From: Bacteroidales bacterium
GTDB taxonomy: Bacteria > Bacteroidota > Bacteroidia > Bacteroidales > B18-G4
Assembly (NCBI GenBank): GCA_036351275.1
Contig: JAZBOU010000025.1
Location: forward strand, 1-57,452
Direction of reading: 5' to 3'
DNA length: 57,452 bases
Shown: positions 6,100-57,383 of the stretch, in pieces
Position numbering within the stretch: position 1 is the stretch's first letter
How the letters are laid out: every line of letters begins with the position of its first letter
Made by a program: the position numbers and the translations under genes
Notes under the pieces: generated by a model
What the model saw: only the letters and a program-made list of their open reading frames with translations
Database searches by the model: none
What the model was told of the DNA's origin: nothing

Positions 6100-6213
6100 T
6101 TTTTAGGCAAGCAGCACTGCTGATTTACAAGTCTGTATTCTGTCTTGTTAATGGCATGTTCATTATTGGCAAAACAATCTCAAATTTAACAGACAGGAGA
6201 CAGAAGTAAGAAT

Positions 6214-6753
6214 CTACTGCTCTTCCGGAGCAGCAGCCGCTTGTTTAGCTTCAAATTCTTTTATGAGCTCCTCTGGACTTTTACCCAGGTTCTGAATGCT
6301 GACCTTAGCATCGTCGGCAAACTCATTGTCGGGATATGTGTCTATAAATTCAATGTAAATGGCCCTGGCGTTTTCAAGGTCACCAAGGTAATTCTCATAA
6401 ACATAGCCTTTAAGGAACAGGCATTCGGGCACCTTCCTGAAATCAGGGTATTCATTGATAACCCTGTCGTAAAGGGTGATGGCTCTCTGGCCTTCTCCAA
6501 GGTTGAGACAAAACTCTGCAGCTTTAAAGAGATATTCAACAGCCATGCTGTCCTGCGGGTAAGAATCGGTGTAATTGACGTACATGTCAACAAGTTCGAG
6601 GGCTTTTTCTTTATCTACAAAGCCTTCGTCAGCGGAAAATAAAGCTTCTTCTTTGGCTTTTATATTGGAAGCATCTTGTTCATTTGATGGCCCGCATGAA
6701 ATGATCGCGGCAGCCATGAATAACATCAATAAGGAGTTTCTAAAGTGTGTCAT
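6214..6753 (-). CDS. TPR-containing lipoprotein
   Basis: Lipobox-like AIISC; TPR pattern (YLFKAAE, A...Y..VI..YP, CLFLKGYVYEN). Confidence 0.8.
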   Translation of the reverse strand: MTHFRNSLLMLFMAAAIISCGPSNEQDASNIKAKEEALFSADEGFVDKEKALELVDMYVNYTDSYPQDSMAVEYLFKAAEFCLNLGEGQRAITLYDRVINEYPDFRKVPECLFLKGYVYENYLGDLENARAIYIEFIDTYPDNEFADDAKVSIQNLGKSPEELIKEFEAKQAAAAPEEQ

Positions 6754-6768
6754 GATTATTGGTTTATG

Positions 6769-7341
6769 TTATTTTCTCTTCTTTGACTTCAGGGGAAAGA
6801 TCATTTTGTAATCTACATCGATATTACCGGTTGAAATGTCATGAAGCTTTCTTTTCAGCAGCATCTTGCGCAGGGGACTGACCCTTTCCACAAATATGGT
6901 GCCTTCAATATGGTCGTATTCATGCTGCATGATCCTGGCCATCACACCCTCGTACGTTTCTTCGATCAGGTTAAAATCCCTGTCGTTGTATTCGATCAGG
7001 ATCTTCGGTTTTCGTATGATATCTTCTCTCACGGTAGGCACGCTCAAGCAGCCTTCGTTAAAACTCCACTCTTCGCCGCTTTCTTCCAGGATAATGGGGT
7101 TTATGAACACTTTCTTGAAATCTTTGGCTTCCGGGTACTCATCTCCGTATGCGGAGGCATCCACGATAAAAAGCCTGATGGATTTGTTAACCTGGGGAGC
7201 GGCCAGTCCAACGCCCGCCGAAGCGTACATGGTTTCAAACATATCTTCGATCAGTTGATCCAGTCCCGGATAGTCCTGGTCGATCTCCTCTGCCACCTTT
7301 TTGAGGGTAGGGTGCCCGTATGCCACAATAGGTAGAATCAT
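6769..7341 (-). CDS. def: Peptide deformylase
   Basis: GVGLAAPQ, EGCLS and QHEYDH motifs. Confidence 0.97.
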   Translation of the reverse strand: MILPIVAYGHPTLKKVAEEIDQDYPGLDQLIEDMFETMYASAGVGLAAPQVNKSIRLFIVDASAYGDEYPEAKDFKKVFINPIILEESGEEWSFNEGCLSVPTVREDIIRKPKILIEYNDRDFNLIEETYEGVMARIMQHEYDHIEGTIFVERVSPLRKMLLKRKLHDISTGNIDVDYKMIFPLKSKKRK

Positions 7342-7766
7342 TTGTTATTGCTTTTTTCTTTCATCTCGAGGTAGGTCTGGAGTATGATCGCAGCACTCAC
7401 TTTGTCGACCAGGCTTTTGTCCTGCCTGGCTTTCTTACCGATACCTGACTCCAGGATCGCTTTTGAAGCCATGGCAGAGGTGAAGCGTTCATCGATGCGT
7501 TCGATCCTGAGCCCCGGGAACACCTTGCCTGCCTGCTTGATGAAGGGAGCAATATATTGCTCTGCCTCTGATGCTGAATGGTCCATCTGCCTGGGTTCTC
7601 CTATTACAAGACATTCAACGTCCTCCTCGGCTAAATATTTTTTGAGAAAGCCAATAAGTTCATGCGTCCTTACCGTTGTCAGGGGGCTGGCGATCATGCC
7701 AAGGGGATCGGTTGCTGCTATGCCGCAGCGCTTTCTGCCATAATCGATAGCCAGTATCCTTCCCAT
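7338..7766 (-). CDS. ruvX: RuvX/YqgF nuclease
   Basis: ILAIDYGRKRCGIA, DERFTS, VDKVSAAIILQ; 4-nt overlap with def. Confidence 0.95.
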   Translation of the reverse strand: MGRILAIDYGRKRCGIAATDPLGMIASPLTTVRTHELIGFLKKYLAEEDVECLVIGEPRQMDHSASEAEQYIAPFIKQAGKVFPGLRIERIDERFTSAMASKAILESGIGKKARQDKSLVDKVSAAIILQTYLEMKEKSNNK

Positions 7767-7888
7767 ACCTTTACCTTGCTGTTAATAATTAAAATCTGCT
7801 GCAAAATTAGTTTTTTTCTTCCTATGCGCCCCGATCCAGACCGTACTTGGGAAAAATACCTAATTTTGGATAGCATAAATTAAGCGAT

Positions 7889-8707
7889 ATGCCTGAAAAC
7901 CTGGTCAAGATTATTGAAGCAGCCTGGGAAGACCGTTCCCGGCTGGAAGAAAACGATTCGCGTGAAGCAATACGCTCCGTAATTGAAATGCTCGATAAAG
8001 GAAAATTGAGGGTGGCGGAGCCTGATGGGGACGTCTGGAAGGTGAATGAGTGGGTAAAAAAGGCCGTGATCCTCTATTTTCCTCTTAGCGAGATGTATAC
8101 AAGCCATGCAGGACCCATGGAATTCCATGATAAGATCGGGCTGAAGAAAAATTACCGGGAGCTTGGTGTTCGCGTGGTACCGCATGCTGTCGCACGTTAC
8201 GGGGCCTATGTTTCAAAAGGGGTGATCATGATGCCTTCATACGTGAACATCGGGGCCTATGTTGATGAAGGGACCATGGTGGACACCTGGGCAACGGTAG
8301 GCTCATGTGCACAGGTTGGCAAAAACGTTCATCTGAGCGGTGGTGTTGGGATAGGAGGCGTGCTCGAGCCCGTCCAGGCTGCACCTGTTATAATTGAGGA
8401 CAATTGCTTTATCGGATCGAGATCTATCGTGGTAGAAGGCGTGAGAGTGAAAAAGGAAGCGGTACTCGGGGCAAATGTGGTCCTGACACAATCCACGAAG
8501 ATCATTGACGTATCAGGCGATGAACCCCTGGAATACAAAGCAGAGGTGCCCGAACGCTCAGTCGTTATCCCCGGAAGCTATACCAGGCAATTCCCGGCAG
8601 GGGAGTACCAGGTGTCATGTGCTCTTATCATCGGAAAGCGTAAACGGTCCACCGATTTAAAAACCAGCCTGAATGAGGCTCTTCGTGAATATGATTTACA
8701 GGTTTAA
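7889..8707 (+). CDS. dapD: Tetrahydrodipicolinate N-succinyltransferase
   Basis: VNEWVKKAV, MVDTWATVGSCAQVG, GGVGIGGVLEP. Confidence 0.96.
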   Translation: MPENLVKIIEAAWEDRSRLEENDSREAIRSVIEMLDKGKLRVAEPDGDVWKVNEWVKKAVILYFPLSEMYTSHAGPMEFHDKIGLKKNYRELGVRVVPHAVARYGAYVSKGVIMMPSYVNIGAYVDEGTMVDTWATVGSCAQVGKNVHLSGGVGIGGVLEPVQAAPVIIEDNCFIGSRSIVVEGVRVKKEAVLGANVVLTQSTKIIDVSGDEPLEYKAEVPERSVVIPGSYTRQFPAGEYQVSCALIIGKRKRSTDLKTSLNEALREYDLQV

Positions 8708-8713
8708 AGCGTT

Positions 8714-11145: not shown

Positions 11146-13215
11146 ATGTACAGGAATAAGCGACTGAAGATCAGACGGGAAGATAAGATCTATAACATAA
11201 AATCAACCGAAAAAGAGGTGTTGGAGAACTGGTATTACCTCATGACCCTGGGGCGCCAGCTCGACAACAAAGCACCAAACTATTTGAAACAGGCACTGGG
11301 GTGGTCATATCATGCACCCTTTGCAGGCCATGACGGGATACAACTCGCCATAGGGCAGGTCTTCGACAGGGAACATGACCATATGTTTCCTTATTACAGG
11401 GATATGCTGACGAACATCTCAGCCGGGCTCACTGCAGAGGAGATCATTCTCAATGGCCTCTCGAAAAAGAACGATATCGCCTCCGGCGGAAGACATATGT
11501 CGAACCATTTTGCGAAACCGGAATGGAATATACACAATGTATCTTCATGCACGGGCAATCACACCCTGCATGCCGTTGGTGTTGCCAGGGCGATAAAATA
11601 TTATGGCGGAGAAGGTGTTGCCATCTCCTCGCAGGGCGAATCTTCTACCTCAGAAGGTTATGTCTATGAGGCCATCAATGGGGCAACAAATGAAAAGTTG
11701 CCTGTGATCTTTGTCTTCCAGGATAATGATTACGGGATCTCGGTACCCAAGGCCGATCAAACCGCAAATCCTTATGCTGCTACGAACTTCGAGGGATTTA
11801 AGAACCTCGAGATCATCTATTGCAACGGTAAAGATGTATTCAACTCTATGAATGCCATGACCCTTGCTAAAAAGTACGTGAAGGACAAAGGGCATCCTGT
11901 GATCGTACATGCCAACTGTGTGCGCATGGGATCGCATTCCAATTCTGACAGGCACGAGCTTTACCGCGATGAGGCAGAAATTTCAGAAGCCCTTGGACAG
12001 GACCCGTTGAAAAGGTTCAGGGAGCGACTGGTATATTCCGAGGTTTTCACAGAAGAAGAACTTGATGAACTCGACAAGAAGGCAAAGAAAGAGATCTCGG
12101 TAGCACACAAAAAAGTGATCGCATCAGCTGATCCTGACCCAGAATCGATCTACGATTTTGTGATCCCCGATCCTTACATACCGGAAAAGTTCAAGGATGG
12201 AATACCTGATGGTTCAGGAACCAGCAGGCGTTTCATAGATGCCCTGAACAACACTTTGAAAGAGGAATTCCGAAGAAATCCGGATACGTTTATCTGGGGA
12301 CAGGACGTGGCCAACAAGGAAAAGGGTGGCATCTTCAATGTGACCAAGGGCATGCAGCAGGAATTTGGCAAGTCGCGGGTGTTCAACGCTCCCATTGCCG
12401 AGGATTTTATCGTGGGTACAGCCAATGGCATGAGCCGTTACAGCAAGGATATCCGGATTGTGGTCGAAGGAGCCGAATTTGCAGATTACTTCTGGCCTGC
12501 CATGGAGCAAGTGCTTGAGCTCAGCCATGATTACTGGCGCACGAACGGGCAGTTTGCAGCCAATGTTACCATCAGGCTTGCTTCCGGTGGATATATAGGG
12601 GGTGGTTTGTATCATTCCCAGACCATTGAAGGAGCCCTTACAACGCTGCCGGGCTTGCGCATCGTATATCCTTCTTTTGCCGATGATGCAGCCGGGCTTC
12701 TCAGGAGTTGCATGCGTTCCGAAGGCCCGAATATATTCCTTGAGCCCAAGGCTTTATACAATGATCCACAGGCAGAGGCCATGGTGCCGGAAGAATTTGA
12801 AGTACCATTCGGTAAGGCCCGGGTCAGGAGGGAAGGTTTCGACCTGAGCATGATCACCTACGGTAATGCAACCCATCTCTGCCTGAAGGCAGCCGAACGC
12901 ATCAAAGAAGAAACAGGAAAAGACGTTGAAGTGCTTGATCTGCGTTCTCTGATTCCCCTGGATGAAGAGGCAATACTGGAAACCGTGGCTAAGACCAACA
13001 GGGCACTTGTTGTCCATGAGGATAAGGTATTTGCAGGTTTTGGAGGCGAGATCGTGGGGCTCATTAATGAGAGAGCCTTCGAGCACCTTGATGCACCTGT
13101 CAAACGTGTTGGCTCTACTTTCACACCAGTTGGATTCAACAGGATCCTGGAATCAGAGATCCTTCCTGATGCAGAGAAAGTTTACAAAGCAGCGATGGAG
13201 CTTTTAGAATATTAG
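11146..13215 (+). CDS. Fused E1 alpha/beta of a 2-oxoacid (probably branched-chain) dehydrogenase
   Basis: PYYRD, TPP-binding region GE...EAIN...N, HSNSD, FNAPIAE, GGLYHSQ, VLDLRSLIPLD. Confidence 0.88.
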   Translation: MYRNKRLKIRREDKIYNIKSTEKEVLENWYYLMTLGRQLDNKAPNYLKQALGWSYHAPFAGHDGIQLAIGQVFDREHDHMFPYYRDMLTNISAGLTAEEIILNGLSKKNDIASGGRHMSNHFAKPEWNIHNVSSCTGNHTLHAVGVARAIKYYGGEGVAISSQGESSTSEGYVYEAINGATNEKLPVIFVFQDNDYGISVPKADQTANPYAATNFEGFKNLEIIYCNGKDVFNSMNAMTLAKKYVKDKGHPVIVHANCVRMGSHSNSDRHELYRDEAEISEALGQDPLKRFRERLVYSEVFTEEELDELDKKAKKEISVAHKKVIASADPDPESIYDFVIPDPYIPEKFKDGIPDGSGTSRRFIDALNNTLKEEFRRNPDTFIWGQDVANKEKGGIFNVTKGMQQEFGKSRVFNAPIAEDFIVGTANGMSRYSKDIRIVVEGAEFADYFWPAMEQVLELSHDYWRTNGQFAANVTIRLASGGYIGGGLYHSQTIEGALTTLPGLRIVYPSFADDAAGLLRSCMRSEGPNIFLEPKALYNDPQAEAMVPEEFEVPFGKARVRREGFDLSMITYGNATHLCLKAAERIKEETGKDVEVLDLRSLIPLDEEAILETVAKTNRALVVHEDKVFAGFGGEIVGLINERAFEHLDAPVKRVGSTFTPVGFNRILESEILPDAEKVYKAAMELLEY

Positions 13216-13260
13216 ACCTGGAAGGTCCCGGACCTTCCAGGTTGCCAACCTTCCAGGTCC
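13215..13260. repeat. REP-like palindromic repeats, left flank of transposase
   Basis: GACCTGGAAGGTC-CCG-GACCTTCCAGGTTGCCAACCTTCCAGGTCC. Confidence 0.85.
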
Positions 13261-13266
13261 CCATGA

Positions 13267-13848
13267 TCAATCCCCTTTTATCAGATTCCGGATAAGGACT
13301 GTTCTGGATTTCTGCCTGTGCGTGTATGCAAAGTTGTTTTCGTTTTCAAACAGTTCTATTACATAATCCCTGTGTAAAATTGATGGATGATTATTTAGTA
13401 TTGCTTGGTATGATGAATACCTGTATTTAGTAAAATCATCGCAGATTTCATGATGAACCGGGTTAGTATGAATATAGTGGATTAAGAATTTAAGATAGAT
13501 CTCATTTTCAACTCTCTTCCTTTTAAAATTCTTCTGGAACAAACTTCCGGTTCGTACATAAGTGATATTGAAATACTTAGCATAGGCATTAAAGAAATTG
13601 GAGAATGATTGGTGAAAGGATTTATTCTTAAGTTCACTGGATATGATCTCCCCGCGCTCCTTGATCCTTAGTGCAAAATGAAAGTGGTTTGGCATGAGGC
13701 AGAAGCAGAATGTATCCGCAATTTCATGAATGTATTTCCTGTAAAGCTCCATGAACCTTGAGTAATCTTCCTTCTCAATGAATAACTTTTCCTTGCTATT
13801 ACCACGATTGTATATGTGATAGTAATATCCTTCTTCGAGTATTTCCAT
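13267..13848 (-). mobile_element. REP-associated tyrosine transposase (RAYT, IS200-like Y1 HUH)
   Basis: YYHIYNRG, CLMPNHFH (HUH), GSLFQ..F, YIHTNPV (catalytic Tyr), YSSY; more AT-rich than neighbours; flanked by REP-like repeats. Confidence 0.92.
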
Positions 13849-13903
13849 AATATTAGTCTTTACCTATTAATACCGAAAAAGGCATTTTGTCACACTTTAA
13901 ATA

Positions 13904-13933
13904 GACCTTCCAGGTTGGCAACCTTCCAGGTCC
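13904..13933. repeat. REP-like palindromic repeat, right flank of transposase
   Basis: GACCTTCCAGGTTGGCAACCTTCCAGGTCC, 29/30 identical to 13231-13260. Confidence 0.85.
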
Positions 13934-14016
13934 TTTAAGCTTTTTTAACATCCTCATCCTAATTCCTCAGGATCGTCGGCTCGATTTTTGATTACTTTTG
14001 GCCAAACTATTCTATT

Positions 14017-16780: not shown

Positions 16781-16815
16781 TTCCATGTTCCCTGTTCCAT
16801 GTTCCATGTTCCCTG
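16781..16815. repeat. Heptamer tandem array (TTCC[A/C]TG) x5
   Basis: ttccatg ttccctg ttccatg ttccatg ttccctg, 4 nt from the alkene reductase stop. Confidence 0.9.
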
Positions 16816-16819
16816 TTTA

Positions 16820-17896
16820 TTATTCGTAATCATTATACCCTTTCTCACCCTGCGTATAAAAAGTTTCCGTATCCCATGGAGTGAGGGGGGCTCCGGTCCT
16901 GAATTTTTGAACGAGGTCAGGGTTTGAAATAAATGCTTTTCCATATGCGATGAGATCGGCATGGCCCTCGCGGAGCGTTTTTTCGCCGCTTTCGGCATCG
17001 AATCCCACATTGGTCATCAAAGTGCCTCTGTATATTTTTCTAAAAAAAGGTGTGATCTCCCTGTCCTGCAGGTAGTGTGGCAGATGACTCACATCTACAT
17101 AAGGTTCCATGATATGCAGATAGGCAAGTTTGTATTCGTTGAGCTTATCTATCACATACGAAAACAGCCCGACAGGATCCTTGTCTGACACATCCAGTTT
17201 GATCCCGCTCGGCGAGAGCCTCAGTCCGGTACGTGCTGCCCCTATCCTTCGAGTCACCTCACTGATAACTTCGAATAAGAATCGGGAGCGGTTTTCCATG
17301 CTTCCCCCGTATTCATCTACTCTTTTGTTTGTTGCATCCTGCAGGAACTGGTCGATAAGGTATCCGTTGGCCCCATGCACTTCAACACCGTCAAAACCGG
17401 CCTCAATGGCATTGGCGGCTGCCTGTCCGTAATCCTGTATGATATTGTGAATCTCCTTTATTTCCAGGGCCCGTGGAAGAACAGTATCCTTGATCCCTTC
17501 CGGCGTTTTTATGCTTCCATCCTCCAGGATTGCCGAGGGGGCTACGGGTGCTTTTCCCCCATGGTAATATGGATGGGAATGCCTGCCTACGTGCCAGAGT
17601 TGCAGGTATATCCTTCCACCGGCATCATGCACGGCAGCAGTCACGGCCCTCCAACCTTCTATCATCTCCTCAGTATAGATGCCCGGTGTAAAGGGGTAAC
17701 CTGTTCCCTGCCTTGAAATGTTACATGCTTCAGCAATGATCAACCCGGCGCTGGCTCTCTTACTGTAGTGCTCTGCCATCATAGGTGTTGGCACACCTTC
17801 TATCGTAGCCCTTGAGCGTGTGAGCGGGGCCATTATGATACGGTTTGGTAACATGATCTTTCCAAGCTGGAAAGGGGTGAGGAGCATGACAGGCAT
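16820..17896 (-). CDS. Alkene reductase (Old Yellow Enzyme, NemA-like)
   Basis: NRIIMAPLTRSRA, QLWHVGR, EVHGANGYLIDQF, YGGS.ENR.RF. Confidence 0.93.
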   Translation of the reverse strand: MPVMLLTPFQLGKIMLPNRIIMAPLTRSRATIEGVPTPMMAEHYSKRASAGLIIAEACNISRQGTGYPFTPGIYTEEMIEGWRAVTAAVHDAGGRIYLQLWHVGRHSHPYYHGGKAPVAPSAILEDGSIKTPEGIKDTVLPRALEIKEIHNIIQDYGQAAANAIEAGFDGVEVHGANGYLIDQFLQDATNKRVDEYGGSMENRSRFLFEVISEVTRRIGAARTGLRLSPSGIKLDVSDKDPVGLFSYVIDKLNEYKLAYLHIMEPYVDVSHLPHYLQDREITPFFRKIYRGTLMTNVGFDAESGEKTLREGHADLIAYGKAFISNPDLVQKFRTGAPLTPWDTETFYTQGEKGYNDYE

Positions 17897-19199: not shown

Positions 19200-20294
19200 A
19201 TGACTGAAGACTTTTTACCCATTAACGGGACAGATTACGTAGAATTCTATGTTGGCAATGCAAAACAGGTTGCCTATTATTACCAGAGTGCATTCGGGTT
19301 CCAGCCCCTGGCATACAGCGGACTGGAAACCGGAGATAAGGAAAAGACATCCTATGTCCTGGTCCAGGATAAGATCAGGTTTGTCTTTACCACCGCCCTG
19401 ACCCCTGATTCTCCCATCGGGGAGCATGTGAAAGAACACGGCGATGGCGTGAAAGTGGTTGCCCTCTGGGTGGATGATGCAAAGAAATCGTGGGAGGAAA
19501 CCACGAAACGTGGTGCAAAGTCTTACTTTGAACCCTATACCAAAAAAGATGAGCATGGCGAGGTCGTCATGGCCGGCATACATACTTACGGTGAGACCGT
19601 GCACATATTCGTTGAACGCAAGAACTATAAAGGTCCCTTCCTTCCCGGATTTGTGAAATGGGAACCGCATTACAAGCCTGAGCCTGTAGGGCTGAAGTAT
19701 GTCGACCATATGGTTGGGAACGTCGGCTGGGGTGAGATGAACACCTGGACGAAGTTTTATGCCGACGTGATGGGATTCAAACAGCTGGTCTCTTTCGACG
19801 ATAAGGATATTTCAACCGAATACACAGCCCTGATGAGCAAGGTAATGTCGAACGGGAACGGCAGGATCAAATTCCCTATTAACGAGCCTGCCAAAGGCCG
19901 CAAGGTGTCACAGATAGAAGAGTATATTAATTTTTACCGCGGGGCAGGTGTGCAGCACGTGGCCATGGCTACCGACGATATCATCCAAACTGTGAGCGAA
20001 TTGAAACGGAGAGGGGTGGAGTTCCTCTATGTCCCTTCTGCCTATTACGATACCGTGCTCGACAGGGTAGGGAAAATTGATGAGAAGCTAAAAGCCCTGG
20101 AAGAACTTGGCATCCTGATCGACAGGGATGATGAGGGCTATCTGCTGCAGATCTTCACCAAGCCCGTGGAAGACCGCCCGACGGTGTTTTATGAGATCAT
20201 CCAGCGTAAAGGCGCCAAATCATTCGGGAAAGGTAACTTTAAAGCCCTGTTTGAATCTATTGAAAGAGAGCAGGAAAGACGCGGAACCCTATAG
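19200..20294 (+). CDS. hppD: 4-hydroxyphenylpyruvate dioxygenase
   Basis: DHMVGNV, KFPINEP, SQIEEY, GVQHVA, LLQIFT, FGKGNFKALF. Confidence 0.97.
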   Translation: MTEDFLPINGTDYVEFYVGNAKQVAYYYQSAFGFQPLAYSGLETGDKEKTSYVLVQDKIRFVFTTALTPDSPIGEHVKEHGDGVKVVALWVDDAKKSWEETTKRGAKSYFEPYTKKDEHGEVVMAGIHTYGETVHIFVERKNYKGPFLPGFVKWEPHYKPEPVGLKYVDHMVGNVGWGEMNTWTKFYADVMGFKQLVSFDDKDISTEYTALMSKVMSNGNGRIKFPINEPAKGRKVSQIEEYINFYRGAGVQHVAMATDDIIQTVSELKRRGVEFLYVPSAYYDTVLDRVGKIDEKLKALEELGILIDRDDEGYLLQIFTKPVEDRPTVFYEIIQRKGAKSFGKGNFKALFESIEREQERRGTL

Positions 20295-20333
20295 AAATCA
20301 GATATCAGAATTTGAAACCAGAATTCAAAATTA
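20293..20333. repeat. Degenerate heptamer array (AGAAATC family)
   Basis: agaaatc agatatc agaattt gaaacc agaattc aaaatta, starting inside the hppD stop codon. Confidence 0.7.
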
Positions 20334-20367
20334 ATCCAACATCCAACCCCTAACACCCAAAATCAAT

Positions 20368-23992: not shown

Positions 23993-24094
23993 GGCAAATA
24001 ATTTAGAAACGTTTTAAATTATATCAAAAATATATAATATCTGTGAAACACAGAATAACAAGGAGGATTTTATGCTAAAAATAACGAATATTGA

Positions 24095-25318
24095 ATGCTG
24101 AAGATGGAACATGGAAGGATACATATTGCCATTCCGTTGATGGATGAGCTGGAAAACCTGCCGCAGCTGCTGAACGATATTCGGGCGCAGGATGCGGATG
24201 ATTACAGGGTGTATTTTTGTGTGAACCAGCCTGATGTATGGTGGAAAAACGAAGAGAAGCGTAGCGTTTGTGAGCGGAACCTCCAGTCGATGGATTTTAT
24301 AAAGGATCATGCCGACTTCCCTGCTAAAATTATTGACAGGTGCAGCAGGGGCAAAGGCTGGCAGGGCAACAACCTTGGCGTGGGATGGGCCAGGAAGGTA
24401 GCGATGGATGCCGTACAGGAAGAAGCAAACGACCGTGACATTATTATCACGCTTGATGGGGATACACGTTTTAACGCAGGGTACTTCAGCAGCATTAAAA
24501 CGAATTTCAACGAACATAATACGGCAGTGGGGTTGTCAGTTCCATATTATCATAAACTGAGTGGCAGCGAACCCGAAGACCGTGCCATCCTTCGCTATGA
24601 GATCTATATGCGCAATTATGCGATCAACCTCTGGCGTATCGGAAATCCCTATCGCTTCACTGCGCTGGGGTCGGCCATGGCCATGCCGGTTTCGTCATAC
24701 AGGGCGATAGGAGGGATGACACCAAAGAAGAGCGGTGAAGACTTTTATTTCCTGCAAAAACTGGTGAAGTACGGAGAATTGCTGACGTGGAATGAAGAAA
24801 AAGTGTACCCCGCAGCACGTTTTTCCGACCGGGTGTTCTTCGGCACCGGCCCGGCCATGATCAAAGGCAACAGGGGGGACTGGGACAGCTACCCGGTATA
24901 CCATCATCGGCTTTTTGAAGAGGTGAAGCAAACCTATGATGCCTTCCCGGCCCTATACCGGGAAGATATTAAAACACCCTTGGGTGAATACCTGTCGGGG
25001 AAGACCGGACGTAAAAAAATATGGGAACCATTACGTAAGAATGCGCCAGATGAGAAGATCTTTATCAAGGCGTGCAGGGAAAAGATCGATGGGCTGAGAA
25101 TACTGCAGTTCCTGAAGCACAGTCAGGGAGAGCGGGGATATTCCGATGAGGAATGCCTGCTGGCAAACATCAGAATACTTCATGCAGGCATACTCAATGA
25201 TTTTGATTTCCTTGTGGATGGCTTTACTTTTGATGAACTGTCGGTAGGCCAGCTTGATAAGCTCAGGGATGCTCTCGTGGCCATCGAGGAAGCATACCAG
25301 AAAGAACACCATGGATAA
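24095..25318 (+). CDS. GT2-like glycosyltransferase, uncharacterised
   Basis: IAIP..DE, GVGWARK, DGD (DxD), GEDFYF; overlaps the miaA start. Confidence 0.7.
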   Translation: MLKMEHGRIHIAIPLMDELENLPQLLNDIRAQDADDYRVYFCVNQPDVWWKNEEKRSVCERNLQSMDFIKDHADFPAKIIDRCSRGKGWQGNNLGVGWARKVAMDAVQEEANDRDIIITLDGDTRFNAGYFSSIKTNFNEHNTAVGLSVPYYHKLSGSEPEDRAILRYEIYMRNYAINLWRIGNPYRFTALGSAMAMPVSSYRAIGGMTPKKSGEDFYFLQKLVKYGELLTWNEEKVYPAARFSDRVFFGTGPAMIKGNRGDWDSYPVYHHRLFEEVKQTYDAFPALYREDIKTPLGEYLSGKTGRKKIWEPLRKNAPDEKIFIKACREKIDGLRILQFLKHSQGERGYSDEECLLANIRILHAGILNDFDFLVDGFTFDELSVGQLDKLRDALVAIEEAYQKEHHG

Positions 25319-26264: not shown

Positions 26265-26285
26265 TTAACCAGTAAACCAATAAAC

Positions 26286-26317
26286 AAAAAAAGCGCTGCC
26301 ATAGGCAACGCTTTTTT
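26286..26317. terminator. Bidirectional intrinsic terminator
   Basis: AAAAAAAGCGCTGCC-ATA-GGCAACGCTTTTTT between convergent genes. Confidence 0.8.
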
Positions 26318-26336
26318 GATATTATGCAGCACGAAT

Positions 26337-27218: not shown

Positions 27219-27510
27219 AATCTTATAAATTTCGTGTTAATGATTAGATTGATCTCGTTCTTATTCTAAGTTCAGTGCAAATATACAACAAAAGTGCCAT
27301 AATTTATAATTATTATAAACAAAATCGACATATTTTATTGTTTTGGAAATGGCATTCCCGTTTATGATACAGATGTTTTAAGCCGTGATTTGACGTCCAA
27401 CGAATCCATTCACAATATAATTTTATTTTTATAATTTGATTTTACAATTCGTTTTTGATTATATTTGATAATTGAAAGAATTACGGAGTCTTAACCTTAA
27501 AACGAAAATT

Positions 27511-27945: not shown

Positions 27946-27956
27946 AACAGAATTCA

Positions 27957-27990
27957 GTAAGAAAGTCCACTGTAGGGTGGACTTTTTTAC
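27957..27990 (+). terminator. Intrinsic terminator
   Basis: AAAGTCCAC-TGTAGG-GTGGACTTTTTT right after the lipoprotein stop. Confidence 0.85.
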
Positions 27991-28069
27991 GTAATTTTTT
28001 AGTAAAAAGGACCCGGGTGTTCGAACCGGGTTTGACGAACCTGCGTATTCCCATGCGCAGGTTTTTTAA

Positions 28070-28157
28070 TTGGTTGAGTAGTTTATTCGTTCATTAGTTG
28101 AGTAGTTTATTCGTTCATTAGTTGAGTAGTTTATTCGTTCAATAGTTGATTAGTTTA
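28070..28157. repeat. Octamer-based array (11 octamers, 24-nt higher-order unit)
   Basis: TTAGTTGA-GTAGTTTA-TTCGTTCA repeated about 3.7 times. Confidence 0.95.
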
Positions 28158-28215
28158 TTTGCAAAGCTTGCTTATAAATTGCTGATAAGATTGCTATTAG
28201 CCCATCATACTAAAA

Positions 28216-33281: not shown

Positions 33282-33288
33282 TAGGCAG

Positions 33289-37212: not shown

Positions 37213-37240
37213 AAATTGGAGTTTGGCGTTTGGAGTTCGG
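37213..37240. repeat. Heptamer array (AGTTTGG family) x4
   Basis: aaattgg agtttgg cgtttgg agttcgg, 3 nt from the kinase stop. Confidence 0.7.
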
Positions 37241-37243
37241 ATT

Positions 37244-39217
37244 TTATTCAACCACTGCCGGGTGGTAAGGCAACTCAACATAAAAAGTTGAACCCTTGCC
37301 TATATCTGAAACAAGATAGATGGTCCCCTCCATTAAACTGACCAGTTCCTTGCTTATGGCAAGTCCGAGGCCTGATCCTCCATGCTGCCGTGTTGTGCTG
37401 TCATCAACCTGGCGAAAACGTTCGAAGATCATCTCAAAATTACTCCTTTCAATACCGATACCCGTATCCTGAACAAATATCTTCATTGTTTTGCCATCTA
37501 TTATTTCATATCCGAAATCAACACGCCCTTCACGGGTAAAGATCATGGCATTGCTGAGGAGGTTGAAAATTACCTGCGAGATTCTTCTTTTATCTCCCTT
37601 GCAGAAATGTTTCTCTGCATCTTCCGGTGCTTTATATTGAAATACCAGTGATTCCTTATTGCTTTCTTTCTTTTCTTTCTCAAAAAAAGCCAAAAGGTCC
37701 TCGAAGATCTGATGAGGCTGGCAGATGTCAAAATCCAGCTTCATCTGGCCTGTTTCAATAGAGGAGATGTCGATAATATCATTGAGAACCTTGAGCAATT
37801 GACGGCTGGAGGAGGCTATATACGAGAGATAGAGTTTGCTCTGTTCTTCCGTTACATTGCCCTTTTGCAGCAGGTCTGTGAACCCCATGATCCCGTTCAT
37901 AGGGGTCCTGAGCTCATGCGAAATATTGACAAGGAAAGTTGTTTTCAGGCGGTCAGATTCTTCCGCCTTTTCCTTGGCCTTGATAAGCTCCTGGCGGCTC
38001 TTAAGGATTTCCTCATGCTGCGAGAGCAATTGTCTCCAGGCCCGCATCCTGAGCTGGTATTGCCTCATGAGGAGTATCGTAAATATGGCGATCAATATCA
38101 TAAAAGATACCAGGGTGATCAGGATGATCTGTTGCCTTCTGATCTTTGTTTTCTGCTCACGCATCCTGGTATTCTGGATCTCCATTTCATTCTCTTTTTG
38201 CTGGGTCTCATATGCACTGGTCAGGGCGACAAGCTCTGATGATGTTTCAACAGTGAAAATAGAGTCCTGGAGGTGATGCCACAAAGAAAAATATTCAAGC
38301 GCTGTTTTGTAATCCTTTTTGGCTTTATAAACCTCATATATACCAAGATAAGCATCCAGGATAGGAGTGGTCAGGTTCATGCGTAAGACAATGTCCAGCC
38401 CCTGCTTGTAATAATCTAGTGCTGCCTCATATTCTTCAGTTTCCCTGTACAGGTTGCCGATATTGATATAGCTTTCTGCCTGCCCACTTGGTGATCTTGC
38501 CAGCTTGTATTCTTCCACGGTTTTGAAATAATACTCCGCCGCCTTTTCGAAGTCCTGGTCCTCCAGGTAATAACCTCCGATATTTCCGCTCGCAGTGGCG
38601 ATCATCTTATGATCCTTGGCCAGTTGAGCAAGCTCAAGAGCCTGGAAATAATAGTTGATCGCTTTCTCCCTCATCCCCAATTCGTCATACAGAGTAGCTA
38701 TATTGTTAAGGGTCTTGGATTGCCCTAAAGTATCACGTAACAAACCATCAACTTCGTAACTTTTCTCGTAATATTTAAGCGAGATGTTTTTCTCACCCCA
38801 GGTATCATATATAACCCCAATATTATTCAATGATCTTGAGATCCCTGCGGAATCATTAATCTCATTGCAGATCTTAAGGGATTCGAGGTAGAGGTCCATC
38901 GCCTTTCTGTAGTTTCCCCAAAATAAATGAATATTACCCAGCTTGCTCTGCATTTCCGACAGCCGGCTTTTATCATTAAGTGAGTCTGCAATACGCATCC
39001 CCCGATTATAATAAATGGAAGCAGAGTCATACTTCTCGGCTTCATTATAGATGAATGCAAGATCGTAGAGTATTGACAGTATTACTGCACTGTCACCTAC
39101 TTGCTGGGCACTATCAAGCTGAACTAAAAGTGAATCGGGCTCAATGGCTACGGAATCATATCCCCGCATCATTAAGAGGAGTATAATCAGGTATAAAATT
39201 AACTTTTCTATCTTCAA
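37244..39217 (-). CDS. Sensor histidine kinase with periplasmic TPR domain
   Basis: TPR repeats, TM helix, H-box SHELRTPMN, NLLSNA, DTGIG, GSGLGL. Confidence 0.92.
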   Translation of the reverse strand: MKIEKLILYLIILLLMMRGYDSVAIEPDSLLVQLDSAQQVGDSAVILSILYDLAFIYNEAEKYDSASIYYNRGMRIADSLNDKSRLSEMQSKLGNIHLFWGNYRKAMDLYLESLKICNEINDSAGISRSLNNIGVIYDTWGEKNISLKYYEKSYEVDGLLRDTLGQSKTLNNIATLYDELGMREKAINYYFQALELAQLAKDHKMIATASGNIGGYYLEDQDFEKAAEYYFKTVEEYKLARSPSGQAESYINIGNLYRETEEYEAALDYYKQGLDIVLRMNLTTPILDAYLGIYEVYKAKKDYKTALEYFSLWHHLQDSIFTVETSSELVALTSAYETQQKENEMEIQNTRMREQKTKIRRQQIILITLVSFMILIAIFTILLMRQYQLRMRAWRQLLSQHEEILKSRQELIKAKEKAEESDRLKTTFLVNISHELRTPMNGIMGFTDLLQKGNVTEEQSKLYLSYIASSSRQLLKVLNDIIDISSIETGQMKLDFDICQPHQIFEDLLAFFEKEKKESNKESLVFQYKAPEDAEKHFCKGDKRRISQVIFNLLSNAMIFTREGRVDFGYEIIDGKTMKIFVQDTGIGIERSNFEMIFERFRQVDDSTTRQHGGSGLGLAISKELVSLMEGTIYLVSDIGKGSTFYVELPYHPAVVE

Positions 39218-39286: not shown

Positions 39287-39368
39287 TGCGGATGAAGGGA
39301 CTCGAACCCCCACGCCTTTCGGCACCAGATCCTAAGTCTGGCGTGACTACCAATTCCACCACATCCGC
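39287..39368 (-). tRNA. tRNA-Leu (anticodon TAG), CCA not encoded
   Basis: Reverse complement GCGGATG...CCAGA-CTTAGGA-TCTGG, long variable arm, GGTTCGAGTCC, CATCCGC-A. Confidence 0.96.
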
Positions 39369-42604: not shown

Positions 42605-42640
42605 GTTACAGGGGAAAAGGTCCCGGATTCCAGGCACTTC

Positions 42641-42675
42641 AGATATCAAATATCAAATATCAGTTTTCAGTATTA
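42641..42675. repeat. Heptamer array (A[G/A]ATATC family) x5
   Basis: agatatc aaatatc aaatatc agttttc agtatta, running into the citrate synthase stop. Confidence 0.75.
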
Positions 42676-43983
42676 CTTATTGTTGATTCCCGCAATCTCT
42701 TCAAGCATATCCGTGGTGAGTGATTTAGGCCTTTCGAGGGGGTACATCAGGGCGCGGTCCCAAATAACATTTGCGCAGATACCAATTGCCCTGCCGATAC
42801 CGAAGAGGACAGTATAAAAGTCATATTCCCTTACGCCATAATGCCATTGGATCACACCTGATTGTGCATCCACGTTGGGCCAGGGGTTTTTCGCCTTTCC
42901 ATGTTCCATGAGGATGGGAGGGACAACCTTATACAGGATGTCAACAAACTTGAACAGCGGGTCGTCTTTAATGTATTTCAGGCTGAAATCACGCTGCAGG
43001 GTATACCTGGGGTCTGTTTTTCTCAGAACGGCATGCCCGTAACCCGGAACAACAAAACCGGCGTTCAGTGTGTCCCATACATATTGCTTGATCTCATCTT
43101 CTGTTGGTTCCGCTCCACCCATTTTTTCCATAAGGTCCTGGAGCCACCTCAGCACTTCCTGGTTTGCCAGTCCGTGCAACGGGCCGGCCAGGCCGTTGAT
43201 CATTGCTGAGATCGACAGGTAGATGTCGGACAGGGAGCTGGCAACAAGGTGCCCGGTATGTGCACTGACATTACCGCTTTCGTGGTCGCTGTGAAGGATG
43301 AAGTGCAGGCGCGAAACATCATCATAGGGTTTGTCGATGCCCATCATGAATGCAAAGTTCCCGCCAAGGTCGAGGTTGGGATTTGACTGTATCCGATTCC
43401 CGTCTTTATAAAGCTTCGCATAAATATATGTTGCGATCTCGGGGAGTTTGGCCAGGAGGTTCAGCACATCCTCGTATGTGGGTTCCCAGTAATCTTCTTT
43501 TTTCAGCCCCGCAAAATATTTCTTCGTAAAGAACGATTCACGGTGCATGGTCAGTATAGCCGATGAAAATATCGTCATCGGGTGGCTGCAGCAGGGGAAT
43601 GCATCGATCACCTCATAAACATAGCGTGGCAGGATCCTTCTTTTGCTGAATTCGTCCACTACATCGGCTACCTCAGCTTCGTTAGGGATGTCGCCTGTCA
43701 GAAGCAGGAACATCAATCCTTCTACATAAGGCATTTCTGCTCCTTTGGGTTTGGGAAGAAGTTCAAACACTTCTTTCAGGGTATATCCCCTGTATCGTAT
43801 CCCTTCGTTGGGGTCAAGATAAGATATGTCGGTTACAAGGCTTTTGAGGCCTCGCATCCCGCCAAGCGCTTTGGCAATGGTCACCTCGTCGATCACCACA
43901 TCACCATATTCGTTCAATAACCTGGCGGTACGGGGGCGCCATTCATTAATCTTTTGCCTGAGCCTTTCTTTAAGTACTGACAT
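42673..43983 (-). CDS. gltA: Citrate (Si)-synthase, eukaryote-like type
   Basis: DHESGNVSAH, GLAGPLHGLANQEV, PGYGHAVLRKTDPR, NPWPNVDA, PLERPKS. Confidence 0.95.
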   Translation of the reverse strand: MSVLKERLRQKINEWRPRTARLLNEYGDVVIDEVTIAKALGGMRGLKSLVTDISYLDPNEGIRYRGYTLKEVFELLPKPKGAEMPYVEGLMFLLLTGDIPNEAEVADVVDEFSKRRILPRYVYEVIDAFPCCSHPMTIFSSAILTMHRESFFTKKYFAGLKKEDYWEPTYEDVLNLLAKLPEIATYIYAKLYKDGNRIQSNPNLDLGGNFAFMMGIDKPYDDVSRLHFILHSDHESGNVSAHTGHLVASSLSDIYLSISAMINGLAGPLHGLANQEVLRWLQDLMEKMGGAEPTEDEIKQYVWDTLNAGFVVPGYGHAVLRKTDPRYTLQRDFSLKYIKDDPLFKFVDILYKVVPPILMEHGKAKNPWPNVDAQSGVIQWHYGVREYDFYTVLFGIGRAIGICANVIWDRALMYPLERPKSLTTDMLEEIAGINNK

Positions 43984-45510: not shown

Positions 45511-45573
45511 GGCTTCTGGCTTCAAGTTCCTGGTTGCTGCTTACTAACTACTGCCTAATGCCTGACGCCCGAC
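45511..45573. repeat. Degenerate period-7 array, 9 units
   Basis: ggcttct ggcttca agttcct ggttgct gcttact aactact gcctaat gcctgac gcccgac. Confidence 0.6.
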
Positions 45574-45638
45574 AGCTGTTAACATTTTTATAACAATTAC
45601 ATCTGTATAAAGTGTATATTTGTTAAAAGTTTAATTTT

Positions 45639-46097
45639 ATGGAGCAACGTTCAGGATTATATCGCAGCTCAAGAGACCAGATGATCGGCGGTGTCGCCGG
45701 CGGGATTGGTGAATCATGGAACCTGGATCCTACCTTGATCCGGATTCTCTTCATCCTGATGGTTCTGGTCGGGGGTGGAGGTGTATTGCTGTATATCATC
45801 TTATGGATCGTGCTTCCACTGGATGACCAAATGAAAATTAACGTAAACTCAGAAACCATGGAAGAGCAAAAAACAAGTGAAAATGCAAATGCAGGTGTAC
45901 CCAAACAGGATAACAGGTTCAAGAAAAAAGACGATGGAAGCCTGATCGCAGGGCTGATCCTGATCACCCTGGGTGTGATCTTTCTCGTAATACGATATGT
46001 ACCACGTATTGATTTTGGCGACCTGTGGCCCGTGATACTCATTGTGATCGGGATCGTGCTTCTCAGGAATGCTTTTGTCAGCAAAAAGCAGCAATAA
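45639..46097 (+). CDS. PspC domain membrane protein
   Basis: LYRS..D.MIGGVAGG, DPTLIR, LYIILWI..P; C-terminal LWPVILI helix pair. Confidence 0.9.
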   Translation: MEQRSGLYRSSRDQMIGGVAGGIGESWNLDPTLIRILFILMVLVGGGGVLLYIILWIVLPLDDQMKINVNSETMEEQKTSENANAGVPKQDNRFKKKDDGSLIAGLILITLGVIFLVIRYVPRIDFGDLWPVILIVIGIVLLRNAFVSKKQQ

Positions 46098-55869: not shown

Positions 55870-56175
55870 ATGAAAAAAATAATCTTAGGTTTGGCACTTG
55901 TGAGTTTTATCGTTCTTGGAAGCGTTGGCGTTCATTATGCGGTAACTTTTTCAGATAATTCAGAGATCGTGAATCTTCAACTTGACGACGATCCGGACAA
56001 AAACAAGAAAGCCGAAGCAAAAACAGACGGTAAAAAGGATTGTGCAAAGAAGTGCGACAAGACAAAAGCGAATTGCTGCCCGGATTCCAAAGCGAAATGC
56101 AAGACTGAATACAAGCAGTGCAAAACGAAATGTGCTGACAAGAAAGGTTCAGGCGACGGCGGCGAGAAGAAATAA
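55870..56175 (+). CDS. Small exported Cys/Lys-rich protein
   Basis: N-terminal signal/TM, 7 Cys in the C-terminal half, own terminator. Confidence 0.75.
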   Translation: MKKIILGLALVSFIVLGSVGVHYAVTFSDNSEIVNLQLDDDPDKNKKAEAKTDGKKDCAKKCDKTKANCCPDSKAKCKTEYKQCKTKCADKKGSGDGGEKK

Positions 56176-56200: not shown

Positions 56201-56230
56201 GCCCCCGGTGAATTTTCATCGGGGGTTTTT
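56201..56230 (+). terminator. Intrinsic terminator
   Basis: GC-rich hairpin GCCCCCGGTGAATTTTCATCGGGGG followed by a T run. Confidence 0.85.
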
Positions 56231-56306
56231 CTTTACTTCTTCTCTCTTCTATCTCTTTCAGGGATATACCTTCTTCTATATGTTCTGCATTCTACAATCA
56301 ATAGAT

Positions 56307-56360
56307 TCGGTTAAATCAGTTAAATCAGTTAAATCAGTTGAATCAGTTGAATCAGTTAAA
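56307..56360. repeat. Nonamer tandem array (TCAGTT[A/G]AA) x6
   Basis: tcggttaaa tcagttaaa tcagttaaa tcagttgaa tcagttgaa tcagttaaa. Confidence 0.92.
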
Positions 56361-56523
56361 TTGGTAGCAATGATGAATTCCTAACCACCCGGCAGGTGCA
56401 TACTAAATGGAATTCACGGATCGAACCTCTTCATTCCTTTCCGCTGCACTCAATAATGCTTCGATGATCGCTGTCGCCAGGATGACAATTTTTCTTATAA
56501 TTGTCATTGTAACGACTTAACGA

Positions 56524-56742
56524 ATGAATATCGTAAGTAAAATAATAGGAACGGTAGCATTTATTATTATGCTGATCGGGCTTTTACCATTATTTGGTAT
56601 GCTCAACTATATCGTGATCCCTCTCGCTACGATAGGTTTGTTCTTCGGGATTTTTAGCAGAAACACCGGAGGTTTATTGCTCAATGGCATCGTATTGATC
56701 GTATCTTTAATGCGCCTGATCGCTGGAGGCGGTATTATCTGA
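56524..56742 (+). CDS. Small membrane protein (about 3 TM)
   Basis: 72 aa, hydrophobic, ends RLIAGGGII. Confidence 0.7.
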   Translation: MNIVSKIIGTVAFIIMLIGLLPLFGMLNYIVIPLATIGLFFGIFSRNTGGLLLNGIVLIVSLMRLIAGGGII

Positions 56743-56901
56743 GAGGAATTCGCATGTCAATCTGGATTGAAAACAACATTAAAAATTGAGCAAGAGTGGC
56801 GGGTGCCAGGTACAGCCTGCAACGAATTCCTCCTAATACACACTAGCTGTTACGTTGGTCCGGTCTGTTCACTATATTCCAGGTATTCTTAACTTTGCCT
56901 C

Positions 56902-57306
56902 ATGTCGACATCAACCGTACGCTACACCTCCGATTTGCGCACCGAGTGCACCCATACATTATCAGGAAATACCATCATCACCGATGCCCCGCCCGACAAC
57001 AAAGGAAAAGGGGAGGCCTTTTCGCCCACCGACCTGGTGGCAACATCCCTGGCCTGCTGCATGCTCACCATTATGGGCATTGCCGCCAATGAACATGGCT
57101 TTTCCATCGATGGCACCAGGGCCACTGTTACCAAGGTAATGTATACCGAACCGCGCAGAATAGGGGAGATCCATGTGGATCTGGTTTTTCCCAAAAACGA
57201 TTATTCAGCAAAAGAGAAAAAGATCATCGAAAAAGCGGCATTCACATGCCCGGTATCGCAGAGTCTGCATCCGGAGCTGGTTCAGGATATAAAATTCTTA
57301 TTCTAA
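56902..57306 (+). CDS. OsmC family protein
   Basis: TDAP.DN.GKG..FSPTDL...LACC, CPV..SL. Confidence 0.92.
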   Translation: MSTSTVRYTSDLRTECTHTLSGNTIITDAPPDNKGKGEAFSPTDLVATSLACCMLTIMGIAANEHGFSIDGTRATVTKVMYTEPRRIGEIHVDLVFPKNDYSAKEKKIIEKAAFTCPVSQSLHPELVQDIKFLF

Positions 57307-57383
57307 GCCGTGTTTCGGATTTCGAGTTTTGAATTCACTAGTGTCCGGTTAAATTCTAAATATAGAAAACTGCGTAATTGAAA

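Follow-up and report, generated by a model that had tools for sequence, protein, structure and literature searches.

The heptamer tandem arrays of heterocystous cyanobacteria, known as short tandemly repeated repetitive (STRR) sequences, are dispersed in intergenic DNA and are known to comprise only a few unit types. In this report, we are concerned with about 15 short tandem arrays, with periods of 7, 8 or 9 nt, in the genome of an uncultured Bacteroidales bacterium. The window, by which we mean the whole 57,452-nt stretch that was analyzed, is an entire contig (C25; GenBank JAZBOU010000025.1) of a 3.24-Mb assembly with 240 contigs and 46% G+C. Like STRR, these arrays are dispersed intergenic heptamers, but they occur in another phylum, and STRR have few unit types. 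In the reading that we consider probable, the micro-arrays are local members of a genome- and family-wide, hypervariable population of tandem repeats with a 7-nt unit and minor 8- and 9-nt classes. Their kind, the heptamer simple-sequence repeat, is already known, but its density and diversity in this lineage are unusual.

Two papers (MacGregor 2015, PMC4679880; Rehm et al. 2015, PMC4692102) supply the closest published parallels. Both summarize the work of Mrazek, Guo & Shah (2007) on long simple sequence repeats (LSSR). These have units of 5-11 nt, heptamers being the commonest; they lie between genes, vary in length and have a scattered phylogenetic distribution. The cause proposed for them is slippage of a polymerase whose footprint is ~7 nt. 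The arrays described here have the dominant 7-nt unit, the mainly non-coding location and the whole-unit changes in copy number of LSSR. However, LSSR have one or a few dominant units, whereas ~250 unit classes occur in this one 3.2-Mb genome, in short, degenerate arrays (median 4 copies) that take up ~5% of the intergenic DNA and are piled on stop codons.

The GGGAATC repeats of Xanthomonas and the GGGGA(T/C)T repeats of Nostoc are also intergenic heptamers, some of them in inverted pairs, and sister species have them between the same genes, though length and sequence vary widely (PMC4692102). Our arrays resemble them in keeping to the same gene boundary in sister species, in their variability and in forming some inverted pairs. 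They differ in that the Xanthomonas and Nostoc repeats have one G-rich, quadruplex-prone unit per genus, whereas the units found here are mostly A/T-rich, diverse and not quadruplex-prone. TAACTGA direct repeats have been described from marine Beggiatoaceae, some cyanobacteria and five Bacteroidetes, including a member of the Bacteroidales (PMC4679880). Some of them overlap stop codons, since a run of the unit has a stop in each reading frame; they lie mostly just upstream of starts, and a translational role was proposed. The present arrays share with them the form of intergenic heptamer direct repeats, the occasional overlap with stops and carriers among the Bacteroidetes, but have many units, a 3' bias and a depletion near starts (16 arrays, with 34.4 expected). 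We therefore rejected membership in this translational type, which has a single unit upstream of starts.

Rehm et al. noted that there was no detailed literature on heptameric repeats as of 2015 (PMC4692102). Our literature searches brought up no paper dealing with heptamer arrays of Lentimicrobiaceae or with mobile elements that reside in such arrays. Nor did we find a description of such unit diversity, of in-phase stop anchoring assessed with a null, of an in-frame linker array or of exclusive hairpin lodging, with the proviso that the supplementary tables of both papers may list stop-adjacent repeats.

Repeats were detected with Tandem Repeats Finder (TRF) and with a period scan of our own (match +1, mismatch -2). 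TRF returned 2292 rows for the genome, 856 with period 7, 241 with period 14 and 64 with period 21; on a simulated genome, 67 of 555 rows had period 7. Our scan detected 347 period-7 segments where the null gave 0, as compared with 36 against 2 at period 8 and 36 against 1 at period 9, and there were harmonics at periods 14 (236 segments) and 21 (105 segments). The genome-wide periodicity check that the initial annotation had called for thus places period-7 arrays far above a Markov null. Merging gives 439 heptamer arrays covering 18.0 kb, and 376 of them are mostly intergenic, the intergenic share of the genome being 10.7% by our crude gene calls. Their density is highest in convergent spacers (1.97 per kb), followed by tandem (1.16) and divergent ones (0.62). 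The intergenic DNA as a whole carries the same signature: identity reaches 0.316 for lag 7, 0.299 for lag 14 and 0.291 for lag 21, while other lags give ~0.272. Exact two-copy intergenic duplicates of k=7 number 530, with 25 expected (21x), while the excess for k=4-6 is 1.1-1.5x.

For the window itself, an order-3 Markov simulation served as the chance model, with a cut-off score of at least 10 for a period-7 segment. Five such segments are present and 0.11 are expected, and the micro-arrays first noticed in the sequence are thus real as a population. TRF places 35 rows in the window, most of the originally listed sites among them. Eight of the 16 listed sites are strong (16781, 25801, 28070, 28216, 33404, 37213, 42641 and 56307) and two are moderate (33375 and 26257), but five (6191, 20293, 24080, 45511 and 57311) are individually at chance level, and 33282 consists of one unit only. 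Comparison with relatives nevertheless supports site 20293: an array is present at this stop in 8 of 11 genomes of the genus.

The arrays are genuine and are no assembly artefact, for they are covered by contigs of independent runs with whole-unit differences. Two DNA runs and two RNA-library runs have contigs over parts of the interval 24-34 kb. One 24-nt unit is absent at 28073 in one of these contigs; elsewhere, a contig skips 64 nt (four 16-mers) at 28230-28295, and another has one additional TTATTCG (+7 nt) at 33419. These variants come from contigs rather than raw reads, so that no rates can be derived from them. The contigs of the two RNA-library runs span 25.9-28.2 kb of a relative that is ~92% identical; contigs alone do not show transcription. 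Arrays are enriched at the contig ends of the assembly (37 of 439, with 9.7 expected). They evidently disturb assembly, and their true number is therefore higher.

The arrays are anchored at stop codons. Our null placed each array randomly inside its own spacer, in 500 trials for all spacers and 1000 for convergent ones. For all spacers together, 89 arrays were counted at most 5 nt from a stop, where the trials gave 58.0 ± 5.5 (maximum 74); within 5 nt of a start they are depleted (16 against 34.4 ± 4.8), and 37 begin inside the stop codon (14.6 ± 3.4). In convergent spacers, where no promoter could keep arrays out, 42 of the 75 arrays are at most 5 nt from a stop (29.5 ± 3.4) and 24 of the 75 have an edge inside the stop codon (8.0 ± 2.5); neither value was reached in any of the trials. 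The 3'-end bias that had been read from the window thus exceeds random placement. About ten of the listed arrays had been said to overlap a stop or to lie within 5 nt of one; eight do (16781, 20293, 26257, 28216, 33282, 33404, 37213 and 57311), and ten lie within 10 nt, 6191 and 42641 being added. As for the others, 25801 is inside miaA, 24080 and 45511 are at the 5' ends of genes, and the distance past a stop is 123 nt for 28070 and 134 nt for 56307.

Array starts peak from -5 to +4 relative to the stop, and the stop is in phase with the repeat, as in TAA CGAATAA CGAATAA, TGA TATCAGA TATCAGA or TAG GCGTTGG GCGTTGG. When 366 units are read in the register of the stop, the commonest triplets are TGA (39), CGA (38), TAA (29), AGA (16) and CAA (15). 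TAG is commoner beside arrays (39 of 104 stops) than genome-wide (627 of 2497).

Comparison with relatives was made in 15 other species genomes of the same genus, whose flanking proteins are 63-95% identical and whose assemblies include two near-complete ones of 3 and 8 contigs. Sister species have an array at the same gene boundary with its unit drifted or replaced, and in array-less species the gap is shorter. Past the gene at 19200-20294, the array begins at the stop in the eight genomes mentioned above, the C-terminus of the protein being conserved. The unit is GAAATCA in this genome and GAAATCT, GAACTCT, GAAGTCT, GATTATG, GATATTC or, in two genomes, TATACAA in the others; unit similarity tracks relatedness (four genomes of the GAA.. 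type; TATACAA in two). In the three genomes without an array, the gap measures just 26-48 nt. Farther afield, the sister genus has TAGTGGT/TAGTAAA arrays at this boundary and two other families have none. Past the gene at 16820-17896, four of six genomes (G010, G013 and G008 among the relatives) have related GGAACAT, GGAACAA, CGAATAA or CGAAAAA arrays. Past the gene at 33439-34026, arrays are found in 8 of 15 genomes and none in six, with one ambiguous; the unit there is GACAATC in two species and its reverse complement, GATTGTC, in two. An array past citrate synthase occurs in just 3 of 16 genomes.

The population extends beyond these loci. Samples of 100 kb contain 13 and 12 arrays in the same genus, 12 in the sister genus and 0 in a genome of another family, and the unit families AACATGG, TAGGCAG, GGATGTT and AACACCC recur in the same-genus and sister-genus samples. 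Of 301 genomes of the order, 35 contain three copies of GAAATCA with two mismatches allowed, and the most matches (27) are in this genome. The reversed control unit gives heavy matches (38, 22 and 10) in other genomes. Taken together, these matches indicate that heptamer arrays are scattered through the order with lineage-specific units.

The largest heptamer array of the window, at 25796-25911, lies inside a gene. Open reading frame (ORF) 25254-26264 is miaA (Pfam IPPT, E 5e-60; gene coordinates 25311-26264), and the array is translated in frame as ..EISEIKNQKSEISIQYPASIIHHPSSSIQYPASSIQH.., giving 39 low-complexity residues. It occupies a hypervariable linker between the conserved AIEI and H-x-V motifs that is 123 nt long here and 75-99 nt in 12 other species, and that is heptamer-like in at least seven other species (AGAAACC, AGAAATC, CTCGTCC and others). 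Linker length is a multiple of 3 in 13 of 14 cases. In G013, a near-complete assembly, it is 116 nt and out of frame, which could be a real pseudogene or an assembly indel. The linker array indicates that repeats arise wherever sequence is free, not only past stops. The arrays are nearly confined to unconstrained DNA: the gaps after stops, convergent spacers and this one frame-kept linker.

We consider it probable that the arrays are heptanucleotide simple-sequence repeats, made by slippage with a 7-nt register, which fill unconstrained DNA in this family and are bounded by coding selection. A lineage-specific process of slippage or duplication in replication or repair, with a register of ~7 nt, would keep creating and expanding repeats; deletion, which we assume, would remove unconstrained spacer; and purifying selection on the coding sequence would halt an array at the stop codon. 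The stop would often become the opening triplet of an array's first unit, so that later units carry TGA, CGA, TAA or CAA in register. Recurrence of unit families may have two sources, namely descent within a network of point-mutated units and real copying between arrays, the latter suggested by composite order and by the 86-bp and 39-bp elements described below. Such elements sit in arrays of one family per species, and they may have been inserted into arrays or been carried between them by homology-guided copying. The arrays would be neutral landing pads prone to single-strandedness, and the cell probably has no need of the arrays themselves.

Several observations weigh against this account. 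Free space alone does not predict a pile-up at stops, which needs the assumed deletion of spacer; even in convergent spacers of at least 150 nt, 10 of 30 arrays lie within 5 nt of a stop, with 3.9 expected. Start and some stop positions are approximate because genes were called with a crude home-made caller, which overlooked miaA (added afterwards). Unit families recur 6-10x above composition nulls. GAATAAYG stands before GAACATGG at 31 unlinked loci and behind it at six. Two composites keep their polarity even away from stops: this one (21 versus 6 loci) and another (18 versus 7). The motif GAAGT occurs at 48 of 878 oriented array ends and at the opposite end of 20, with ~15 expected. GACAATC and GATTGTC, in the spacer past 33439-34026, are each read in the same sense relative to the gene abutted. 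Recurrence, polarity, GAAGT ends and this rule of orientation could mean a selected function in RNA or DNA, or directed copying. Finally, the account gives no reason for a register of 7, and we identified no polymerase or repair feature that would set it.

The pattern of recurrence bears on the first of these alternatives, a dedicated process of dispersal or writing, either by template switching between loci or by units written by an element or enzyme and seeded at gene ends. We regard it as unlikely. In its favor, the 848 period-7 TRF rows that were classified fall into 250 strand-collapsed unit classes, as opposed to 505-589 in two nulls; the largest classes hold 36, 22, 21, 21 and 20 rows (5-10 in the nulls), and the unit collision probability is 0.0096 (0.0010-0.0017). 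The claim that families recur at unlinked sites is thereby borne out. The composite order and the occurrence of the same families in other species and the sister genus point the same way, as do the flips of orientation at the 33439-34026 spacer. The GAAGT terminus is polar in GATATYT arrays (30 versus 7), GAACATG arrays (18 versus 5) and CGAAACA arrays (7 versus 1). No polarity was seen for GATATCT/GATATTT (8 versus 10), GAGTTCC/GAGTGCC (6 versus 7) or GAAATCA/GATATCA (6 versus 11). Long matches (score at least 32) number 87 among real arrays and ~29 after shuffling of unit order; the test is confounded, since shuffling also splits runs of identical units, and we did not use it as evidence of dispersal. 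Against such a process, the more closely two species are related, the more alike are their units at orthologous loci, as evolution in place would have it; differences between strains amount to single units, and units of 8, 9, 16 and 24 nt would require other rulers. Clustering of the flanks of same-family arrays brought out no common sequence except other arrays and small elements.

Part of the family recurrence is true copying, to which the small elements lodged in arrays point. An 86-bp non-coding element with ends TCCCGAAAAA..TTTTTCGGGA lies between the TAGGCAG units at 33282 and 33375 and consists of two 43-nt stem-loops (-33.9 kcal/mol, z -5.7). Fourteen copies of at least 60 nt exist in this genome (C184:1676, C31:4171, C135:294, C132:1838, C119:5281, C74:44842, C17:46, C88:17500 and others), and all 14 are inside heptamer arrays. 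Nine are 96.5-100% identical and have TAGGCAG units on either side, and a stop is often no more than 25 nt away. In contigs of other runs, read depth is ~200 over the element and ~4 around it; no contig of these runs joins across the element at the window locus, a coverage hole that is no proof of an empty site. The element is present in all four same-genus genomes searched (~16, 6, several and 1 copies) and absent from the one sister-genus genome searched, and its 22-nt end also occurs in public contigs titled uncultured Bacteroidales or Lentimicrobiaceae. All 18 copies examined by eye in four sister species lie in arrays. The preferred context varies by species: in one, the element stands between ..ACCAG and TAACCAG, and in eight copies of another between ATTCTTATTCTTA and TTCCTTG... 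Eight copies in G013 have 13 nt of left flank in common. This shared flank, like the nine near-identical copies among TAGGCAG units, is what a dispersing process would produce.

At two loci occupied here, sister species have the array without the element, which indicates that the element inserts into pre-existing arrays. One variant lies outside an array (L166 1204-1321; C74, ~45.30-45.42 kb), where a second copy of the first 30 nt of tRNA-Val is interrupted by it between nt 15 and 16 and no target bases are duplicated; the intact tRNA-Val is next to it (L166 1332-1407). The absence of target-site duplication rests on this one insertion, because direct 7-nt flanks inside arrays are uninformative: any cut in a period-7 array yields them. 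An element that inserts without duplicating its target cannot write 7-nt units through cycles of insertion and excision, and we rejected the writing of arrays through 7-bp target-site duplications. No writing enzyme was found, and the repeat-writing mechanism of the initial annotation is not supported. Its wider contention, that local slippage alone hardly suffices, is partly supported. Slippage is clearly at work and explains most of the behavior (whole-unit variants, unit drift with phylogeny); the composite order and the lodged elements fit copying between arrays. The arrays do hold inserted elements, which are non-coding, and no cargo genes were found in the region compared, 24-28 kb. There, all same-genus loci that extend far enough have glycosyltransferase, miaA and p26337 in this order, save that p26337 was unmatched in G012; the proteins without identity in this region had no Pfam match.

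Short hairpin elements of this sort are familiar from other bacteria. REPIN and repetitive extragenic palindromic (REP) elements are moved by RAYT tyrosine transposases (REP-associated), and hairpin-ended miniature inverted-repeat transposable elements (MITEs) are known in the IS200/IS605 family; Elhai and co-workers are said to have described the small dispersed repeats of Nostoc in 2008. The 86-bp element is like them in being short, non-coding, multi-copy and intergenic after genes, in its two stem-loops, in making no target duplication and in that Y1 (IS200-like) genes are present in the genome. It is unlike them in that no cognate transposase was found, the Y1 genes having other palindromes, and in that all copies lie in heptamer arrays with a species-dependent preferred unit. 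Two Y1 genes are above the cut-off in this genome (C176 and C117), each with its own flanking palindromes, and relatives have 1-5. In the window, a 193-aa protein encoded at 13267-13848 (-) has a Y1 match of 21.9 bits, just under the cut-off of 23, and is flanked on both sides (~13215-13263 and ~13900-13935) by one palindrome, GACCTTCCAGG..CCTGGAAGGTC; the arrangement looks like a REP-associated transposase with its REPs. The presence of these genes is compatible with dispersal by an enzyme, but they lie away from the element copies and share no ends with them beyond 11-15-nt chance matches, and we rejected them as partners of the element. No Rfam family matches it; the best hit is a chance-level EBER1 (E 0.4, 15.9 bits, threshold 50).

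A second element is a 39-bp GC-rich palindrome, CCTGCCTGCC..GGCAGGCAGG, with 16 copies (e.g., C125:12217-12255). Six of the 16 have a period-7 flank, as compared with 2.9% of random intergenic 28-mers, and five copies sit in one register of GTGCCGA arrays. Flank clustering found more small palindromes beside arrays. In relatives, other GC-rich inserts of ~24-31 nt lie between identical heptamer units, for example a 31-nt insert with TAGTGGTTGG on either side. They sit in L012 (G016) and L186 (G001), the spacers past the orthologues of 19200-20294 and of C88:16845-17483. These inserts suggest further small-element families lodged in arrays.

Distinctly doubtful, in our judgment, is the notion that the arrays are under selection for a function in the 3' untranslated region or in the DNA. 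They might act as spacers or hairpins in the ending or stabilizing of transcripts, as back-up stops in three frames, or as rows of binding sites for a protein, such as a cold-shock protein, that binds single strands and covers 7 nt. CspB, according to PMC4679880, binds heptamer repeats with one protein per heptamer. Stop anchoring above the uniform null, fixed unit polarity and the GAAGT end motif would also fit. Stops in all three frames are provided by 42% of stop-adjacent arrays in tandem spacers (n=45) on the sense strand, 4% on the antisense strand and 24% after shuffling, but 24% of the same arrays are without any sense-strand stop. A complementary run lies within 120 nt of 47 of the 439 arrays, against 14 in a permuted control. 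One such pair is in the window, where the 16-mer array at 28218 is complementary to the 24-mer array at 28069; 28060-28345 folds at -76 kcal/mol (shuffled -39 ± 4, z -9.2) into a hairpin of ~280 nt between convergent genes. Pairing as a general rule was nevertheless rejected, being true of only ~11% of arrays; some 89% have no complementary partner. The self-complementarity of intrinsic terminators or REP-like hairpins is present in the 28069/28218 pair, but the arrays in general lack it. A strict perfect-stem scan placed a terminator-like site behind 3 of 98 genes with stop-adjacent arrays and 184 of 2355 without, too few sites to weigh.

Selection is further opposed by the relatives, in which three loci have a shorter gap, with no array and nothing in its place, in 3 of 11, 6 of 15 and 13 of 16 genomes, respectively, and by the free replacement of units among ~250 classes. 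Arrays also occur in a protein linker and at 5' ends. The genes adjoining them are of an ordinary housekeeping type with no function in common: an HPPD-like dioxygenase, fumarylacetoacetase, NADH:flavin oxidoreductase, citrate synthase, a sugar transferase, a histidine kinase, miaA, and OsmC-like and PspC-domain proteins. Chance periodicity or a fault of metagenome assembly, which the chance-level sites and the crowding at contig ends might suggest, is already refuted by the genome-wide excess, by the unit variants in independent runs and by orthologous arrays in up to 8 of 11 genomes, near-complete assemblies included, and has next to no probability left.

The individual features of the window are collected in Table 1. 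The composite at 24080, on the plus strand, and that at 33404, on the minus strand, are the same one with the same unit order. A further segment of period 7/14/21 is found at 36744-36777, within ORF 36068-37153 (-). The interval 26001-28000 is low in G+C (0.395, against ~0.46) and holds two conserved genes without a Pfam family, at 26337-27218 (-) and 27472-27945 (+); these are syntenic in most of the genus, and the interval is therefore no recent island. A tRNA at 39287-39368 (-) is the sole Rfam match at gathering threshold in the window.

Table 1. Repeat arrays and the lodged element in the window, with strand, context and score (score of our period scan unless marked TRF)
Position	Strand	Repeat	Context	Score
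6191-6213	-	Weak degenerate heptamer run	10 nt 3' of the stop of TPR gene 6214-6753 (-) (Pfam TPR)	6
16781-16817	-	CATGGAA/CAGGGAA units x5.3 (TTCCATG on the other strand)	2 nt past the stop of NADH:flavin oxidoreductase gene 16820-17896 (-); convergent spacer	21
20292-20364	+	Degenerate AGAAATC/AGATATC, then AACATCC/AACACCC	Begins in the TAG stop (-2) of HPPD-like gene 19200-20294; extends to the fumarylacetoacetase start, 20368	7
24080-24118	+	Composite AATAACG..AACATGG AAGG	5' end/start region of glycosyltransferase gene 24095-25318; divergent spacer	7
25796-25911	+	AGAAATC ~6x, then AGCATCC/ATCATCC ~11x	Inside miaA	62
26255-26292	+	Period-8 array TAAACTAA/TTAACCAG/TAAACCAA, 3.9 copies	From the miaA stop; followed by a hairpin and T-run	9
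28069-28159	+	24-mer x3.8 (three 8-mers)	Left arm of long hairpin	TRF 161
28218-28344	+	16-mer x7.8 (TRF 28218-28342; two 8-mers)	Adjoins the stop of gene 28342-29109 (-)	TRF 229
33282-33288	+	One TAGGCAG unit	Right behind the TAG stop of sugar-transferase gene 31866-33281; left flank of the 86-bp element	
33289-33374		86-bp mobile hairpin element	Inside the TAGGCAG array	
33375-33390	+	TAGGCAG x2.3	Right flank of the 86-bp element	
33404-33441	-	TAG AATAACG AATAACG AATAATG AATATCG AACATGG AAGT (minus strand)	Begins in the stop of DUF4294 gene 33439-34026 (-)	16 (33414-33439)
37213-37245	-	CCAAACT/CCAAACG units	2 nt past the stop of histidine-kinase gene 37244-39172 (-)	10 (37216-37241)
42639-42669	-	TGATATT TGATATT TGATATC TGAAGT (minus strand)	10 nt past the stop of citrate synthase 42673-43983 (-); convergent spacer	14 (42639-42662)
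45511-45575	+	Weak degenerate 7-nt periodicity	Divergent spacer upstream of PspC-domain gene 45639-46097	7
56307-56361	+	9-mer GTTAAATCA x5.8 (56310-56361)	134 nt past ORF 55870-56175	TRF 90
57311-57331	+	Weak; three units TGTTTCG GATTTCG AGTTTTG	~4 nt past the stop of OsmC-like gene 56902-57306	at most 5

Why the unit is 7 nt, and whether such repeats act at all, is a long-standing question about bacterial heptamers. This lineage, in which 15 sequenced species of one genus can be compared for arrays at a shared gene boundary, is dense enough in them that the birth, drift, flipping and loss of arrays can be measured at fixed anchors. The same density makes measurable how far selection lets arrays go, both at the stop codon and within the in-frame linker, and the role of arrays as landing sites for small hairpins. 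There is also a practical side: the arrays break metagenome assemblies and can shift apparent gene ends, as in the out-of-frame miaA linker of G013.

A bolder reading, which we offer as a long shot, is that a lineage-specific mutational engine in this Lentimicrobiaceae-like family turns every unconstrained stretch into 7-nt arrays, which form a portable homology network. Small hairpin elements and whole composite arrays would be copied between loci through this network, with no conventional transposase involved. Arrays would nucleate at stop codons, and template switching or single-strand transposition would be guided by the flanking units. If this is true, the arrays would be not mere microsatellites but a self-propagating substrate for the exchange of intergenic sequence.

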